This document shows, one piece after another, positions 25,472-43,120 of a DNA stretch of 47,466 nucleotides. Each line of letters starts with the position of its first letter. The first letter of the stretch is position 1. This DNA comes from an uncultured Candidatus Saccharibacteria bacterium (lineage in GTDB: Bacteria; Patescibacteriota; Minisyncoccia; UBA6257; 2-01-FULL-56-20), in contig CAZMPQ010000002.1 of the NCBI GenBank assembly GCA_964568535.1, forward strand, positions 1 through 47,466, written 5' to 3'. The notes under the pieces are model-generated. The model was not told the origin of the DNA. It was given only the letters and a program-made list of their open reading frames with translations, and ran no database searches. The translations under genes were made by a program, and so were the position numbers.

Positions 25472-25921
25472 ATGCTATGGTATACTTCAGCTATGCTGAA
25501 ATGTGTGAATTGCAGAGCGACTCTCGCAGGGCGACACCAGATAAAATTTTGCTCAAACAAATGCCAGTTTCTTTTTCAGCACAAAAAATGGTTGGGCGAT
25601 TGGAAACAGGGGAAATTAAGTGGCAATATCGGAATAGTCGCAAAGAATATTTCAAGGCATCTCAAGGGATATCTTACCGAAAAATTCGGCAATAGATGTT
25701 CTCAATGCGGTTGGAGTAAAAAACATCCCGTAACGGGATTTGTACCATTGGAGATAGATCACATTGATGGAGATTCGGAGAATAATTCCGAGTCAAATTT
25801 ACGCCTCCTGTGCCCGAATTGTCATGCGCTTACACCATTTTATAAAAACCTGAACAAAGGGAAGGGGAGGAAGTGGCGGATGGCAAAATATATCAAGAAT
25901 GCAAGCAAACTCCACAAATAA
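25472..25921 (+). CDS. HNH endonuclease
   Basis: ...EIDHIDGDSENNSESNLRLLCPNCHAL... HNH motif plus an N-terminal CxxC..C..C. Visibly A/T-richer than its surroundings. An alternative start exists at 25493. Confidence 0.85.
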   Translation: MLWYTSAMLKCVNCRATLAGRHQIKFCSNKCQFLFQHKKWLGDWKQGKLSGNIGIVAKNISRHLKGYLTEKFGNRCSQCGWSKKHPVTGFVPLEIDHIDGDSENNSESNLRLLCPNCHALTPFYKNLNKGKGRKWRMAKYIKNASKLHK

Positions 25922-27203: not shown

Positions 27204-27815
27204 ATGGACGATCTGCGAACGACCTACGACAAAATAGCGCGCGATTGGACAAAGGCCCACGAGAGCGACGCGTGGTGGGTTGAGGGCACGAACAAACTCA
27301 TATCGCTCCTGCCACTCGGCGGAAGCGTATTGGATGTTGGTTGCGGTTCTGGCGTGAAATCAGAATATCTTGCGCAAAAAGGCCTCGCAGTCGTCGGAGT
27401 AGATTTTTCCGGCGAGATGGTGAAGCTCGCCACGCATCGCGTGCCGAACGGCAAATTTTTAATATCGGACGTTCGCGATGTGAGCAAGTTGGACCGGATG
27501 TTCGATGGAATCTTTGCGCAGGCCGTTCTGCTCCATATCCCAAAGAGGGAAATATCCGATGTTATTGCCGGATTGAAACAAAAACTGAAACCCGCCGGAT
27601 ATTTGTATATAGCGGTCAAGGAGCAGCGTCCAGGCAAACCCGAAGAGGAGATCGTAACAGAGAACGACTACGGCTACGAATATTCACGATTCTTCAGTTA
27701 TTTCAAGTTGGATGAGGTAAAAGACTATGCACGGGCTGCAGGAATGGATATCGTCTACGAGAACGTGACAACATCGGGGAAAACGAACTGGCTCCAGGTC
27801 ATCGGGCGCGCTTGA
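27204..27815 (+). CDS. class I SAM-dependent methyltransferase
   Basis: VLDVGCGSGVKSEYLA...VGVDFS motif I / post-I. Start moved to 27204 to avoid overlapping the preceding gene. Confidence 0.85.
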   Translation: MDDLRTTYDKIARDWTKAHESDAWWVEGTNKLISLLPLGGSVLDVGCGSGVKSEYLAQKGLAVVGVDFSGEMVKLATHRVPNGKFLISDVRDVSKLDRMFDGIFAQAVLLHIPKREISDVIAGLKQKLKPAGYLYIAVKEQRPGKPEEEIVTENDYGYEYSRFFSYFKLDEVKDYARAAGMDIVYENVTTSGKTNWLQVIGRA

Positions 27816-27840
27816 AAATTCCTCCACCGAACGGTAGAGT
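27812..27840 (+). promoter_or_regulatory. candidate promoter of tRNA-Thr(GGU) (TTGAAA-17nt-TAGAGT)
   Basis: The -10 box ends 9 nt before the tRNA 5' end. Confidence 0.45.
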
Positions 27841-27849
27841 AGCAGCGTC

Positions 27850-27921
27850 GCCGTTGTAGCTCAGTGGTAGAGCGACTCCATGGTAAGGAGTAGGTCGGGA
27901 GTTCAATCCTCCCCAACGGCT
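27850..27921 (+). tRNA. tRNA-Thr (anticodon GGT)
   Basis: GCCGTTG/CAACGGC acceptor, ACTCC-ATGGTAA-GGAGT anticodon arm, GGGAG-TTCAATC-CTCCC T-arm. Confidence 0.9.
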
Positions 27922-27923
27922 CA

Positions 27924-27964
27924 AAACACAAAACAGCGAACCGATGGTTCGCTGTTTTGTGTTT
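27924..27964 (+). terminator. 19-bp perfect palindromic terminator after tRNA-Thr(GGU)
   Basis: AAACACAAAACAGCGAACC gat GGTTCGCTGTTTTGTGTTT. Confidence 0.75.
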
Positions 27965-27965
27965 C

Positions 27966-28092
27966 GGGGAGGATTGAACGGGAAAGGGGTCGGGAAAACG
28001 GGAGTTTTCCCGTGGCGGAAGTTGGGAACCGATGGGTTCCCAAGAGCCCCGCCGTGGCGGGGCGACGTGAAATCCTCCCCAACGGCTCAAAA
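27966..28092 (+). ncRNA. tRNA-trailing structured element T1 (candidate novel RNA / miniature element)
   Basis: The 5' end is the exact reverse complement of the tRNA T-arm. The 3' end is a 22-nt direct repeat of the tRNA 3' end. Three internal hairpins. Homologous to 42752-42910 (minus) and 35513-35656. Confidence 0.5.
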
Positions 28093-28126
28093 GTAAAGTC
28101 GAAGGGCAACGGTAGGATGAGGGAAG

Positions 28127-28135
28127 TGGTATAAT
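28127..28135 (+). promoter_or_regulatory. extended -10 promoter element (TGgTATAAT) for the repeat-protein gene
   Basis: TG at 28127-28128, TATAAT at 28130-28135; 38 nt before the ATG. Confidence 0.45.
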
Positions 28136-28173
28136 GAAGCTGTCTGCGGCATCAACCGCAGCAGTTTTTCCTT

Positions 28174-30507
28174 ATGATACGGAAGGCTCTTTCCGCGTTC
28201 TGTGCGGCGACGATGCTTATCGCCGTGTTTGCGGCGCTCAGCGAGCCGTTCGTGGCGGCGGGTGAGGAGCTAAGCGACCAAACAGCCGCTGTGCGCCCCG
28301 CTGAACCGAATCCGGTGCTCGCGCCGTTCGCGCAATTCTTTCGGCGACTGCGGCGCGTGAGCGTGAGCTTTTTACGGAGCAGGGCTGCAGGAGAAAGCGC
28401 GCCCATCCTGACCGTTCTCACGAACATCACGAACGACAACGGCGGCACAACAGAACCGCAGCAGGTGATGGTACATGTCCGCGATGAGCACGGCGATATT
28501 GTGGGAAGCCCTTCGCCGGGTTCGGCAACGGGGCAAGGATACGAGCTCGCTCCCGGCATGTATACCGTGAGCTACGAAGGCATTCCATTCGGCTACGCAT
28601 CGGCCATCACCGGCGATTGCGCGCCAGACGGGACCATCACGCTCATCCCCGGCGATGTTGTGACGTGCGGTATAGAGAGCGATGATATTCAGCCGCAGGT
28701 CAAAGTGGTGAAACAGGTTGTGAACGATCACGGCGGGACGATGGATGCTTCAAATTTCATCATGTATGTGACCGGCTCTGGTTCGTTCGCGCAATTTCCC
28801 GGCGTGGCCGACGGAAGGGTCATCAGTATGAACGCAGGCGGTTATACCATCCACGAGTCCACGGTCGGCGGCTACACCGCCAGCTTTTCTGCGAACTGCA
28901 ATAGCTCTGTCGGCATCGGCGAGACGAAGATATGCGTCATCACGAACAATGACATCCCATCGCTCTTGGATGTCGCGGTGAACATCGTGAACGACAACGG
29001 CGGTACGAACTCGGTGGAAGATGTGTCGCTCGCCATAACCGGAACGAACCCGACTTCTCCCGCGCTGAGCGGCGCAACGACGCCGCAACCTATCGGTATC
29101 GGTGCTGGGCCGTACACGGTGACCGCCGCCCTGCGTGGATACGCGATGCTCACGAGCGCTGGTTGTTCGGGCACGATGGATTCGGGGGAACGGCGCACGT
29201 GCGTGGTAACCGCGAACGATATCCAGCCGGTCGTGACGGTAACGACGAACGTGGTGAACGACCACGGCGGAACGGCATCCCCGGGTGATTTTTCCGTCAT
29301 TGCGGCAGGCGAGAATCCCGTGCCATCAGCCTTCCCGGGCTCCTCTGCTGGTATAGCGGTAGCCGTGAACGCAGGTCCGTACACGATAGATCAAGCGCCG
29401 CCGTTCGGATACAGCCAGCAGTTCTCCGCGAACTGTTCCGGGATAGCGGAAGTCGGCGACGCGCTGACCTGTGTCATCACGGCAGATGACATTCCGGCGA
29501 AGCTCACGGCGATGAAAACGGTCGTGAACGACGACGGCGGCGCGAAGACGCCCGCTGACTTCACGCTCACGATCGCCGGTCTGCCGGCGCAAAACGGCGT
29601 TCCCGTTCCGCTCGCGCCGGGAACGCACCGCGTTGCCGAAACGCCCGACGCGGGATACGCGCCGTCCTACAGCGGCGACTGCGATGCGCAGGGGAATGTA
29701 ACACTCGCATTCGGTGAGTCCGCAATCTGCACCATAACGAACCATGATATCCAGCCGAAGCTCACCATCATCACGGCGGTGACGAACGACAGCGGCGGCA
29801 CGAGAACGGCAGGCGACTTCTCCGCAACGGTTGTCGGTACGAGTGTGTCGCCGTCCGGCGCCGTTCCCGGCTCATCGGTCGGCGTCGCGGTGACGCTCGC
29901 TGCAGGGTCATTCAGCGTGACGCCGGGTACCGTAAGCGGCTATACCTCCCTTGCCGGCGCAGGATGCAGCGGCACGCTCGCGGTCGGCGAGGAGCGCACC
30001 TGCACCATCGCGTACGACGATGTACAAAGCGAGCGTGCTGTAACGCGCACCAGCACGTTCTGGCGGCAGTACGGCGAATTCACCCGTCGAATGTTCCAAG
30101 AGAAGTTGAATAGTGCCATCCGAGTGGGTGATCCGGCGCGGAAGAATGTGAACAATTCGGAGAAGGTCTTCGGGCTGTATTATGCGAAAACGGACGAAAA
30201 AACGAACGGCGATGACCGTACGCGCGTGGAAATGGCGCGCATCAAGCTGGCGCGGGAACTCGTGACCGCACGCCTGAACTGCAGTGCTTTCGGATGCTCG
30301 GACGCCGTTCGTGCGGTCATCGCGACCGCGGATAAGGCATATGCCGGCACGTCCACAAGGGATATGGGCCGTTCGGAAGTTGCACTCAACGAATACAACC
30401 GGAGTGGCGTGCGACAAAGCATTCCAACATCGGCGGGCAATATCGGCAGGGCATCCGAGAGTCAGGCCGAACGGGGCGCCGACAAGCGGTTCTGGAACGA
30501 GCCGTAG
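28174..30507 (+). CDS. large extracellular protein with six tandem ~90-aa Cys-pair repeats (VxNDxGGT...C...C..TNxDI)
   Basis: Signal/TM N-terminus. Repeat motif at roughly aa 86, 185, 272, 362, 452 and 540. Non-repetitive ~170-aa C-terminal domain. Confidence 0.85.
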   Translation: MIRKALSAFCAATMLIAVFAALSEPFVAAGEELSDQTAAVRPAEPNPVLAPFAQFFRRLRRVSVSFLRSRAAGESAPILTVLTNITNDNGGTTEPQQVMVHVRDEHGDIVGSPSPGSATGQGYELAPGMYTVSYEGIPFGYASAITGDCAPDGTITLIPGDVVTCGIESDDIQPQVKVVKQVVNDHGGTMDASNFIMYVTGSGSFAQFPGVADGRVISMNAGGYTIHESTVGGYTASFSANCNSSVGIGETKICVITNNDIPSLLDVAVNIVNDNGGTNSVEDVSLAITGTNPTSPALSGATTPQPIGIGAGPYTVTAALRGYAMLTSAGCSGTMDSGERRTCVVTANDIQPVVTVTTNVVNDHGGTASPGDFSVIAAGENPVPSAFPGSSAGIAVAVNAGPYTIDQAPPFGYSQQFSANCSGIAEVGDALTCVITADDIPAKLTAMKTVVNDDGGAKTPADFTLTIAGLPAQNGVPVPLAPGTHRVAETPDAGYAPSYSGDCDAQGNVTLAFGESAICTITNHDIQPKLTIITAVTNDSGGTRTAGDFSATVVGTSVSPSGAVPGSSVGVAVTLAAGSFSVTPGTVSGYTSLAGAGCSGTLAVGEERTCTIAYDDVQSERAVTRTSTFWRQYGEFTRRMFQEKLNSAIRVGDPARKNVNNSEKVFGLYYAKTDEKTNGDDRTRVEMARIKLARELVTARLNCSAFGCSDAVRAVIATADKAYAGTSTRDMGRSEVALNEYNRSGVRQSIPTSAGNIGRASESQAERGADKRFWNEP

Positions 30508-35383: not shown

Positions 35384-35457
35384 GCGCGCATAGCTCAGCT
35401 GGTTAGAGCGTTGCATTCACATTGCAAAGGTCCCTGGTTCGAGTCCAGGTGCGCGCA
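35384..35457 (+). tRNA. tRNA-Val (anticodon CAC)
   Basis: GCGCGCA/TGCGCGC acceptor, TTGCA-TTCACAT-TGCAA anticodon arm, CCTGG-TTCGAGT-CCAGG T-arm. Confidence 0.9.
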
Positions 35458-35471
35458 CACGAAAAACAAAA

Positions 35472-35510
35472 CGATCCTACCCTCGCGGTAGGATCGATTT
35501 GCTTTTGCGC
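35472..35510 (+). terminator. terminator after tRNA-Val
   Basis: CGATCCTACC ctcgc GGTAGGATCG ATTTGCTTTT. Confidence 0.65.
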
Positions 35511-35512
35511 AC

Positions 35513-35656
35513 GGGGATTCGAACAGCGGAGGGGGTCGGGGAACCGCGACCGGTTCCCTGTGTAGGAATGAGCGAAGCGGACTCAAAACCGAGGGTTTTG
35601 AGAGAGTGGCTTGCTGAGTAGCGAGCCATGACGTTCGATTCCTCCAGGACGCACCC
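35513..35656 (+). ncRNA. tRNA-trailing structured element T2
   Basis: GGGGATTCGAAC...GGGGGTCGGGGAACC..GGTTCCC.. hairpins ..TGACGTTCGATTCCTCCAGGACGCACC. Same block order as T1/T3. Confidence 0.45.
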
Positions 35657-42747: not shown

Positions 42748-42751
42748 GTTC

Positions 42752-42910
42752 TTGTAGCGCCAATGGGATTGAACGTCGCTCGTCGCTATACAGCAACTCG
42801 CTCCCACGAACCCAGCGGTTCGTGTGCTCCGCCACGGGAAACCTCTCCTTCGACCCCGAGCTCAGGACCGAGGGGCCGGTTTCCCGACCCCATCCCCGTT
42901 CGCATCCCGT
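42752..42910 (-). ncRNA. tRNA-trailing structured element T3
   Basis: The minus-strand reading shares GGGGTCGGGAAAC, TTTCCCGTGGCGGAG, GAACCGCTGGGTTC and CGACGTTCAATCC blocks with T1. The distal end TTGTAGCGCCAATGGGATTGAAC (42752-42774) repeats the tRNA-Glu 3' end (42955-42978). Confidence 0.5.
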
Positions 42911-42919
42911 CGGCGGCAA

Positions 42920-42951
42920 GTAAAAACATCCCACGCGTGGGATGTTTTTAC
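42920..42951 (-). terminator. palindromic terminator after tRNA-Glu
   Basis: GTAAAAACATCCCA cgcg TGGGATGTTTTTAC. Confidence 0.75.
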
Positions 42952-42957
42952 TCGTTG

Positions 42958-43032
42958 TAGCGCCAACGGGATTCGAACCCGTGTTCCCGCCGTGAGAGGG
43001 CGGTGTCCTGGACCGGGCTAGACGATAGCGCC
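42958..43032 (-). tRNA. tRNA-Glu (anticodon CTC)
   Basis: Reverse complement: GGCGCTA acceptor (G-U at 1:72), GTCTAGCCCGGTCCAGGAC D-arm typical of tRNA-Glu, CCGCC-CTCTCAC-GGCGG, ACGGG-TTCGAAT-CCCGT. Confidence 0.88.
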
Positions 43033-43043
43033 GTGCGGAAATA

Positions 43044-43071
43044 ATCATAACGAAATTTCAGCATACAGCAA
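43044..43071 (-). promoter_or_regulatory. candidate promoter of tRNA-Glu (TTGCTG-16nt-TATGAT on minus strand)
   Basis: The reverse complement of 43066-43071 is TTGCTG; the reverse complement of 43044-43049 is TATGAT. Confidence 0.45.
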
Positions 43072-43120
43072 CCCCGCTCGCGCATCACGCGCTTTTCGTG
43101 GTACAGTTCATCATCACCTC

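Follow-up and report, generated by a model that had tools for sequence, protein, structure and literature searches.

A widespread family of small non-coding insertion elements behind tRNA and tmRNA genes of Patescibacteria

Introduction

Integrative elements that use tRNA and transfer-messenger RNA (tmRNA) genes as targets, with their tyrosine-integrase attL/attR sites and T-loop sublocation, carry a direct repeat that runs from the T-loop to or past the 3' end of the gene, and the same holds for their integrase-less derivatives (CIMEs). A different principle is found in the folded attP(+) site of CTXphi, which recombines with dif and leaves the integrated order hybrid site, element, inverted site, loop and hybrid site. 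Here, we describe a structured block behind the tRNA-Thr(GGU) gene of an uncultured Candidatus Saccharibacteria bacterium (assembly GCA_964568535.1, contig CAZMPQ010000002.1, positions 1 to 47,466; this whole stretch of 47,466 nt is referred to as the window). The block is one copy of a widespread family of non-coding insertion elements of about 115-200 nt located behind tRNA and tmRNA genes of Patescibacteria. The family, for which we found no description in the literature, resembles both tRNA-targeted integrative elements and folded-strand recombination sites. To our knowledge, Patescibacteria comprise a large share of bacterial diversity, have tiny genomes and contain few known mobile elements.

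Results

Anatomy of the element behind tRNA-Thr

The locus consists of the following parts:

27850-27921/22, + strand: tRNA-Thr(GGU), the target gene (ARAGORN; Rfam tRNA model, 69.1 bits)
27924-27964, + strand: spacer hairpin T1, with arms 27924-27942 and 27946-27964 forming a perfect 19-bp stem (100% complementary)
27966-27979, + strand: inverted copy GGGGAGGATTGAAC, 14/14 complementary to 27901-27914
27980-28070, + strand: conserved core (RNA and DNA folds; covariance model R1, see below)
27991-28012, 28022-28043 and 28046-28063, + strand: core hairpins P1, P2 and P3, respectively (folding of 27966-28092)
28071-28092, + strand: direct repeat of the tRNA 3' end, 22/22 identical to 27905-27926

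The tRNA segment copied into the element (27901-27926) comprises the T-loop, the 3' strand of the T-stem and the 3' strand of the acceptor stem. The inverted copy corresponds to G53, the T-loop and the T-stem 3' strand and forms the 5' strand of a closing stem, P0. The direct repeat spans the T-loop through the discriminator plus CAAAA; it supplies the 3' strand of P0 and leaves the acceptor tail single-stranded. Between both copies, the core runs from the purine-rich junction GGGAAAGGGGTC through P1, the junction GTGGCGGAAG, P2 and P3 to the junction GCGACGTGA. Positions 27966-28092 fold into the 10-bp stem P0 and three hairpins with an RNA energy of -69.2 kcal/mol (z = -5.5; 0/200 dinucleotide shuffles as stable), and DNA parameters gave the identical structure (z = -5.2).

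A previous sequence-only reading had reported the perfect 19-bp hairpin behind tRNA-Thr(GGU), a 5' end that is the exact reverse complement of the T-arm, a 22/22 direct repeat at the 3' end and a 10-bp pairing of these ends around three hairpins, all of which our analysis reproduced at the same positions and which go far beyond chance expectation. The span it gave was 27924-28092; within it, 27924-27964 represent the hairpin spacer and the element proper starts at 27966. The hairpin had also been called a terminator. It is perfect and terminator-like, and its A-tract and T-tract resemble a bidirectional terminator, but it was not called by a simple terminator scan; its T-run sits within the stem. 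The same scan called T1 of the copy behind tRNA-Val on both strands.

A family behind tRNA and tmRNA genes

Two further copies are located in the window:

42958-43032, - strand: tRNA-Glu(CUC), second target (ARAGORN, Rfam)
42752-42957, - strand: second copy with T1 (element 42752-42915; R1 65.7 bits at 42804-42915)
42919-42952, 42898-42915 and 42752-42770, - strand: T1, inverted copy and direct repeat (18/19) of the second copy (repeat comparison)
35384-35457, + strand: tRNA-Val(CAC), third target (ARAGORN, Rfam)
35459-35655, + strand: third copy with T1, partly degraded (element 35507-35655; R1 52.6 bits at 35507-35603)
35462-35506, 35507-35524 and about 35633-35655, + strand: T1, inverted copy and decayed direct repeat of the third copy (repeat comparison)

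The recurrence behind tRNA-Glu and, in a diverged form, behind tRNA-Val had been noticed in the sequence-only reading and is borne out by these scores, compared to 89.9 bits for the Thr copy; all three copies have a common block order and are co-oriented with their tRNA. The inverted copy at tRNA-Glu is 18 nt long (89%) and extends into the acceptor strand, and the core contains a 40-nt insertion within P1. The core at tRNA-Val belongs to the 'AGCGGAGGGGGTCGGGGAACC' subtype. Its ends match poorly, both mutually and to the tRNA, and the z-score of the fold is only -2.7. No further family copies are present in the window. Three of the five tRNAs in the window are occupied, which is unusually dense, and the copies sit among housekeeping genes. 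No promoter-like site was detected ahead of the window copies, and the genes downstream have their own promoters located past the element. A riboswitch or leader of the downstream gene was rejected, since the genes downstream vary between copies and are served by promoters of their own past the element, and some copies directly adjoin a convergent gene or another tRNA.

We searched a one-genome-per-species collection with the pattern GAAC-N6/7-GGGGTCGGGRAAMC, which revealed at least 120 loci. A covariance model (R1), built from 48 copies and covering the inverted copy, P1 and P2, confirmed 99 of 120 among the matches listed, while each of the 20 listed loci whose label clearly names another phylum was a chance match that R1 did not support. 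Confirmed hosts among the matches listed are almost all Patescibacteria and include Saccharibacteria, many Parcubacteria/Paceibacterota lineages, Moranbacteria, Berkelbacteria and Minisyncoccia. A few element-bearing metagenome-assembled genomes are labelled Bdellovibrionales, Gammaproteobacteria or WS2, and these labels were taken as given.

The link to tRNA genes is strong. As the sequence-only reading had suggested checking with a covariance model, we asked whether copies lie 3' of tRNA genes: a same-strand tRNA ends within 130 nt upstream of 75 of the 89 R1 matches with sufficient upstream DNA. Most of the remaining 14 either represent second units of tandem arrays or are located behind a tmRNA gene or an intron-containing tRNA. 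The targets cover at least 18 tRNA amino-acid types. A copy behind a tmRNA gene (Rfam 136.5 bits) was observed in locus L012 (7195-7709, - strand), where the inverted copy matches the tmRNA T-arm at 15/16 positions. Of the 165 tRNAs in 82 element-bearing sources (the window plus 81 fetched loci), 76 have a copy; since nearly all of these 76 are the copies for which the loci were fetched, occupancy of the other tRNAs is only about 5-8%. Throughout the family, the layout consists of the tRNA, a hairpin, the T-loop and the 3' strand of the T-stem in inverted copy, a conserved core of covarying hairpins and a direct copy of the tRNA 3' end.

The impression that no described family has this layout was sustained by Rfam 15 and the full-text literature. 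In the window, Rfam 15 matched the tRNA alone, and neither gathering nor permissive thresholds placed a match on the element; the best non-tRNA match in 27800-28200 was ylbH with 28.4 bits, compared to a gathering score of 50, and was located on the hairpin. In 18 related loci, Rfam matched tRNA, tmRNA and LOOT RNA alone, none of them overlapping the element. Full-text literature searches, including the core sequence itself as a query, returned no published description of the family. No family match was found in the IMG/VR, phage and plasmid collections, and blastn against the phage and plasmid collections was empty. A phage or plasmid origin was dismissed, as the five pattern matches in IMG/VR were chance matches in coding or terminator sequence. 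Clustering of 413 open reading frames (ORFs) within 2.5 kb of the copies did not reveal a recurrent neighbour protein (top family in 5/81 fetched loci). The element of 115-200 nt itself contains no ORF, and hence no integrase gene.

The core is a selected single-strand fold

Across the 48 copies, 89.5% of the P1 and P2 positions are paired. We counted 83 double-sided-change cells in P1/P2 compared to 32.7 in shuffles; none of 500 shuffles equalled this value, and slid registers scored far lower. The earlier observation that helix arms vary between copies yet remain complementary is borne out in these 48 copies, and the core is a selected single-strand fold. P3 is modular and occurs in GC-rich, AT-rich and 'GCTGTATAGCGA' types, each of which is self-complementary. 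A conserved T.G pair in one P3 type is compatible with the tRNA-sense strand only. The purine-rich junctions GGAAAGGGGTC and GTGGNGGAAG are the best-conserved parts, although the first overlaps the search pattern.

These data fit a fold of RNA and of single-stranded DNA (ssDNA) alike. Integron attC sites have been recovered by RNA-discovery methods as well, and the same RNA-versus-ssDNA caveat was raised by the group behind many Rfam motifs (PMC5737381). Mini-hairpins of the GAGCGAAGCGAG type (GCGAAGC) are frequent in many loci, e.g. L096, L119, L117, L048 and L030, where they occupy the spacer ahead of the inverted copy, insertions of P2/P3 and the stretch that separates GTGAGAT from the T-stem copy. 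As the GCGAAGC motif is unusually stable as DNA, these mini-hairpins may hint at ssDNA folding.

Both ends follow the local tRNA

End anatomy was measured on 60 copies, T-loop variants were counted on 63 and flanking hairpins on 59. Read as its reverse complement, the inverted copy agrees with the tRNA at 91-100% across positions 53-62, which comprise G53, the T-loop and the beginning of the T-stem 3' strand. Beyond, identity drops to 83, 78, 70, 61 and 56% over the remaining T-stem bases and the first acceptor bases, followed by 13-45% over what is left of the acceptor strand. The inverted copy is thus anchored at the core side and decays outward. A fold-back priming from the terminator hairpin, which predicts the best match beside the hairpin, was rejected on the basis of this opposite gradient. 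The direct repeat is identical to the tRNA at 88-100% from the T-loop end through the discriminator; the match frequently runs on for a few more bases and in some copies reaches the next hairpin. Its single-stranded acceptor tail shows 98% identity. Its length is variable, with at least 18-22 nt. The junction motifs ..TYGAAC and GT(TC/GA)RA represent the T-loop and its complement, and the acceptor 5' strand is missing from most copies.

Where the tRNA and the direct repeat disagree, the inverted copy sides with the tRNA in a ratio of 99:3, and where the tRNA and the inverted copy disagree, the direct repeat sides with the tRNA (103:3). Among the mismatches, G.T is not in excess over A.C. As each end follows the tRNA independently, both are tied to the tRNA and not mutually by compensatory evolution. 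We therefore abandoned a switch that is maintained by pairing, in which the inverted copy would alternate between the tRNA and the decoy copy, as the sequence-only reading had considered: independent compensatory changes stand at 3 versus 99, wobble pairs are not enriched, and a hairpin intervenes between tRNA and element in about three quarters of the copies.

At T-loop positions 55-56, GTGA replaces GTTC in 29/63 copies, while GTTC or GTTT is kept in 27/63. Opposite the GAAC of the inverted copy, GTGA results in a tandem G.A/A.G mismatch, that is, a 2-nt bubble.

Empty sites define the inserted unit

Orthologous loci in close relatives were retrieved via neighbouring proteins, and the check for empty sites proposed earlier was positive for tRNA-Val and tRNA-Glu. 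The tRNA-Val locus of L132 is empty: 27 nt behind the tRNA come the -10 box (GGTTTGCTACAAT) and the ORF that are also present in the window, while the window contains 197 additional bases at this site, corresponding to hairpin and element. In L122, an identical tRNA-Glu(CUC) is bare, without hairpin or element. An identical tRNA-Thr is also bare in L131, with an ORF directly after it, in a different synteny. None of these three empty sites has a hairpin after the tRNA, which indicates that T1 arrives with the element.

T1 is present as a stable terminator-like hairpin between tRNA and element in 45/59 copies. A second hairpin 3' of the direct repeat was detected in 37/59 copies and is T1-like in 13/59, as would be expected if the native 3' end and its flank were displaced by the insertion. 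Together, the inserted unit consists of T1, the inverted copy and a conserved core of two or three covarying hairpins. On either side of it lies a direct copy of the tRNA 3' end, the first as the end of the complete tRNA and the second behind the core. A simple long target-site duplication fails for the Thr copy in the window, since T1 is not duplicated.

Spread and conservation

The most similar cores are usually found behind different tRNAs in different organisms. For instance, the cores of L048 (Saccharibacteria, tRNA-Arg GCG) and L108 (Kaiserbacteria, tRNA-Gln CTG) are identical at 72/73 positions, while their ends differ and each matches the local tRNA. On sequence grounds, this demonstrates a horizontal spread between Patescibacteria classes with locally matched ends. 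Degenerate copies occur as well (Val in the window, L124 and L133).

In L130, the orthologous Thr locus is occupied, and the comparison with the window revealed the following identities:

tRNA 3' part: 30/30
Hairpin T1: 26/42 (62%), with compensatory changes
Inverted copy through P2: 81/82
P3: replaced by the type that the Glu copy of the window has
3' junction and direct repeat: 28/28
Flank: 40/57 (70%), with a 27-nt indel
Adjacent ORF: 154/211 (73%)

Core and ends may therefore be constrained far more than the protein gene, or may have been renewed recently by transfer or gene conversion.

Tandem arrays contain an identical spacer and inverted copy with differing cores, and mosaic modules occur as well. 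The arrays of L007 and L034 include cores of unrelated families with the same architecture. Such unrelated cores were observed in L007 (850-1080, - strand), L032 (1425-1630), L010 (after 2226) and L024 (627-700); one example ends with ...CTTAGTAACTCGTGACCGAG, and they are stacked in tandem with the studied family, sharing spacer and inverted copy.

Other features at the tRNA loci

Several loci show rearrangements or other inserts at tRNA genes. Comparison of window positions 42748-43120 with L122 (4267-4409) and L124 (2851-3446) revealed that the cassette of promoter, tRNA-Glu, hairpin and element is inverted, with an unchanged order of MurF and a 329-aa ORF. The intergenic region after murF contains a LOOT RNA in L121 (4680-4804; Rfam RF03000, 88.4 bits) and no tRNA-Glu; the counterpart in the window holds tRNA-Glu and the element. 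In L135 (62-307), an ORF for an 81-aa GIY-YIG nuclease (Pfam, 2e-15) is inserted directly after tRNA-Val; the same locus has no insert in L132 and is filled by the element in the window. Within the window, an ORF for a 149-aa HNH endonuclease (25472-25921, + strand; Pfam HNH, 1.5e-06) lies directly behind tRNA-Thr(UGU), which has no element; a direct repeat of the 3' end of this tRNA was not found downstream. The tRNA 3' flanks of this clade attract several kinds of selfish insert.

In L024 (353-7525), a 6.9-kb defence island (GmrSD-HNH, EcoRI-type methylase, SDH protease, AbiEii/AbiEi) behind tRNA-Asn is bracketed by two copies of hairpin plus element that are 97% identical. In three different genomes (L097, about 1050-1310; L124, 2990-3250; L133, about 1130-1380), a tRNA-Glu or tRNA-Val is split in the anticodon loop by about 130 nt, and the inserts hold a complete second tRNA of the same amino-acid type with a flanking inverted repeat. 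The inner and outer types of the nested tRNA-Val are the two alleles seen singly in L132 and the window. A group I intron-like insert of about 190 nt is located in the anticodon loop of tRNA-Thr(GGU) in L045 (about 1060-1310) and L130 (upstream of 1186, - strand); the tRNA-Thr(GGU) of the window has no anticodon-loop insert. L031 shows a hammerhead-like motif (CTGATGAGTCCAAAAGGACG) 3' of a truncated copy at the contig end.

Discussion

Comparison with described systems

The element shares with integron attC sites and CTXphi attP(+) (XerCD) the inverted and direct target-like copies around a structured loop, and the imperfect inverted repeat (here P0) folded on one strand, as indicated by the T.G pair and the DNA z-score of -5.2. 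As to a mismatched region beside the presumed crossover, GTGA is present in 29/63 copies and GTTC/GTTT in 27/63. The integrated order is that of CTXphi. Unlike these systems, which use attI or dif, it targets genes for tRNA and tmRNA at their T-loop and 3' end; its loop is a strongly conserved core whereas theirs is variable, and its stem changes with each tRNA. Its core motifs are GAAC/GTTC in contrast to RYYYAAC/GTTRRRY in attC, dif-like half sites are absent, and the neighbourhood of its copies yielded no recurrent gene that would link it to IntI or Xer.

With integrative elements of tRNA and tmRNA genes and with CIMEs it has in common the direct repeat from the T-loop to or past the 3' end, a tRNA that stays intact through an element-borne 3' end, tmRNA targets and tandem accretion. 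It differs from them by its size of only 115-200 nt, the lack of an integrase, the extra inverted target copy, the conserved covarying hairpins and the use of one core family for at least 18 tRNA amino-acid types. MITEs (miniature transposable elements with inverted repeats), repetitive extragenic palindromes and bacterial interspersed mosaic elements (REP/BIME) and IS200/IS605-derived palindromes are likewise small, non-coding, hairpin-rich, multi-copy, sporadic and non-autonomous. However, their ends are fixed terminal repeats and their duplications short and fixed, whereas the ends of the element copy the local target and its direct repeat is long and variable; moreover, its position and orientation are strict to tRNA genes and no linked or family-typical transposase is present. 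A MITE was thus rejected, given ends that differ per copy following the local tRNA and a variable direct repeat of at least 18-22 nt. IS200/IS605 or a TnpB omegaRNA was dismissed as well, since T1 is not conserved, a long direct repeat is present and no gene is linked; in addition, an omegaRNA with the direct repeat as its guide would also target the intact upstream tRNA gene.

Plant mitochondrial t-elements, the tRNA-like domain of tmRNA and YrlA resemble the element in a closing stem that equals the T-stem, sometimes the acceptor, of a tRNA and that could recruit tRNA-processing enzymes. In contrast to these, the core replaces the T-loop, the acceptor 5' strand is usually missing, the neighbouring tRNA is mimicked specifically and Rfam shows no match. 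A tRNA-like RNA or tmRNA gene was excluded, as ARAGORN and tRNA-clan models miss the element, acceptor complementarity is 13-45% per position and the core occupies the T-loop position. Finally, the internal guide of group I introns (P1/P10) and the loops of IS110 bridge RNA are comparable in that one segment is complementary to both sides of a junction, here G53-C56 and R57 to the T-stem. Unlike these, the element has no group I core, terminal G or IS110 recombinase, and its complementarity extends over 10-22 nt rather than a few bases. Group I and II introns were rejected because of the length of 115-200 nt, the lack of Rfam intron matches, the complete unspliced tRNA and the terminator-like hairpin inside; retrons were rejected alongside TnpB omegaRNA and introns.

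Possible mechanisms

The claim of the sequence-only reading that the block is a selected fold or a miniature element targeting tRNA 3' ends is supported in substance by the family, the tRNA link and the empty sites. We consider it an even call that the family represents a mobile element without coding capacity or autonomy of its own, which has the 3' part of patescibacterial tRNA and tmRNA genes as its specific target and inserts into the T-loop via a folded single strand. An inserted unit between two copies of the tRNA 3' end that both start in the T-loop, a fold on one strand, horizontal spread and the lack of a protein in cis lead us to propose that integration would occur by crossover in or just past the T-loop, at about the C56/R57 junction. 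The element would bring its own tRNA 3' end and a hairpin, keeping the tRNA intact and pushing the original 3' end downstream. The attachment site would be the folded tRNA-sense strand, in which pairing between the inverted copy and the tRNA 3'-end copy would mimic the double-stranded target; the GTGA bubble of about half of the copies would adjoin the crossover point, and the chemistry would be performed by an enzyme encoded elsewhere. Natural transformation with ssDNA would be the likely carrier between lineages. Such an uptake is plausible: Patescibacteria are enriched in competence genes, have been shown to undergo natural transformation and are not known to have natural plasmids (PMC11665869).

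Several points weigh against this model. No recombinase was identified, and excision, circles and ssDNA are not shown by the present data. A classical integrase model has no need of the inverted copy and leaves its re-matching to each new tRNA type unexplained. At the Thr locus of L130, the core (81/82) and the ends (28/28) are nearly identical while T1, flank and ORF are at 62, 70 and 73%, a pattern resembling the outcome of purifying selection on a functional element resident at the locus, or else of a recent sweep. The copies of L018, L021 and L033 lie inside tRNA operons without a terminator and must therefore be transcribed. Furthermore, the GTGA bubble occurs in only about half of the copies (29/63) and the pairing partners show no wobble enrichment.

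Because re-matching of the inverted copy, conservation in situ and operon transcription are not explained by the folded-strand model, a host- or self-serving RNA function stays a serious rival, although we regard it as somewhat unlikely that the element is primarily a structured non-coding RNA module serving the host, with mobility being secondary. Such an RNA would be produced by read-through from the tRNA promoter or as part of a tRNA-operon transcript; its closing stem would imitate the T-stem/acceptor end, so that RNase Z, RNase P and the CCA-adding enzyme set its ends, and the core would bind a conserved cellular partner. The covariation of P1 and P2, the conserved purine-rich junctions, the co-orientation of every copy with its tRNA and a T.G wobble that suits the sense strand only are in line with this, as are the identity of 98.8-100% of core and ends at an orthologous locus with an adjacent ORF at 73%, the terminator-free copies between tRNA genes in the three operons and a single-stranded acceptor tail held at 98% tRNA identity. 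It fits poorly, however, with a terminator-like hairpin ahead of the element in 45/59 copies and no promoter-like site, with the sporadic occurrence and the empty sites of close relatives, and with degenerate copies such as those of tRNA-Val in the window, L124 and L133. A complete minihelix is also absent since most copies lack the acceptor 5' strand, the closing stem itself shows no compensatory evolution, and the Rfam tRNA and tmRNA models do not match.

It is distinctly unlikely that the element acts as a guide or splint RNA, in which the inverted copy, complementary to the last four bases of the tRNA 5' piece and the start of the direct repeat, spans C56/R57 and either directs a trans recombinase to the T-loop or aligns a broken tRNA with a spare 3' quarter for ligation. 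The inverted copy is indeed best conserved exactly over positions 53-62, the direct repeat is a full 3' quarter with discriminator, the GTGA mismatch lies immediately 5' of the junction, and tRNA-specific ends are combined with shared cores. Yet geometry is the sole basis of this proposal: Rfam shows no ribozyme or ligase signature, terminators precede most copies, only a minority of tRNAs has a copy and the mismatch is found in only half of the copies. In its wider form, with the inverted copy as a programmable guide or splint for the T-loop junction and the core as an active scaffold, the family may be speculated to be either an RNA- or ssDNA-guided insertion system free of protein genes, retargetable to any tRNA by a change of about 10-20 nt, or a spare-part cassette holding a replacement 3' quarter for the cognate tRNA; we rate this joint proposal as unlikely. 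Still less probable, in our view, is a retroelement-like insertion, in which a read-through transcript of tRNA, T1 and element is copied by target-primed reverse transcription into a tRNA gene nicked in the T-loop, with the direct-repeat end of the RNA annealing to the nicked bottom strand. The geometry fits on paper, as the RNA 3' end equals the target top strand from R57 and T1 of the donor would co-travel, and Patescibacteria carry many reverse transcriptases. But no reverse transcriptase or nuclease is linked, most template transcripts would end at T1, neither poly-A nor a pattern of 5' truncation is present, and the direct repeat has the genomic trailer CAAAA instead of CCA. Decaying attachment-site remnants of larger integrated elements such as prophages or islands are nearly refuted and hence extremely improbable. 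Direct repeats of a tRNA 3' end are the classical integrase footprint, other partial tRNA copies lie nearby in L022 and L117, and in L024 two copies bracket the 6.9-kb defence island; on the other hand, the same core of about 75-110 nt with covarying helices occurs in at least 99 loci and is better conserved than adjacent coding sequence, no integrase is nearby, and the family is absent from the phage, plasmid and IMG/VR collections.

Implications

Throughout Patescibacteria, tRNA and tmRNA genes have been colonised by a small, protein-free element, which represents an overlooked route of genome change, in which a near-invariant folded core is kept while both ends are tailored to each target. 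If the folded-strand model is true, it would extend the CTXphi/attC principle to tRNA genes. The guide reading would instead imply a naturally retargetable insertion system, and a guided-insertion or spare-part cassette would be a kind of system undescribed in bacteria. In practice, the covariance model flags a recurrent source of pseudo-fragments of tRNAs and of wrongly annotated intergenic RNA in metagenome-assembled genomes. The element further serves as a marker of horizontal exchange among the classes of Patescibacteria and might give the newly tractable Saccharibacteria a ready-made site or tool for integration.

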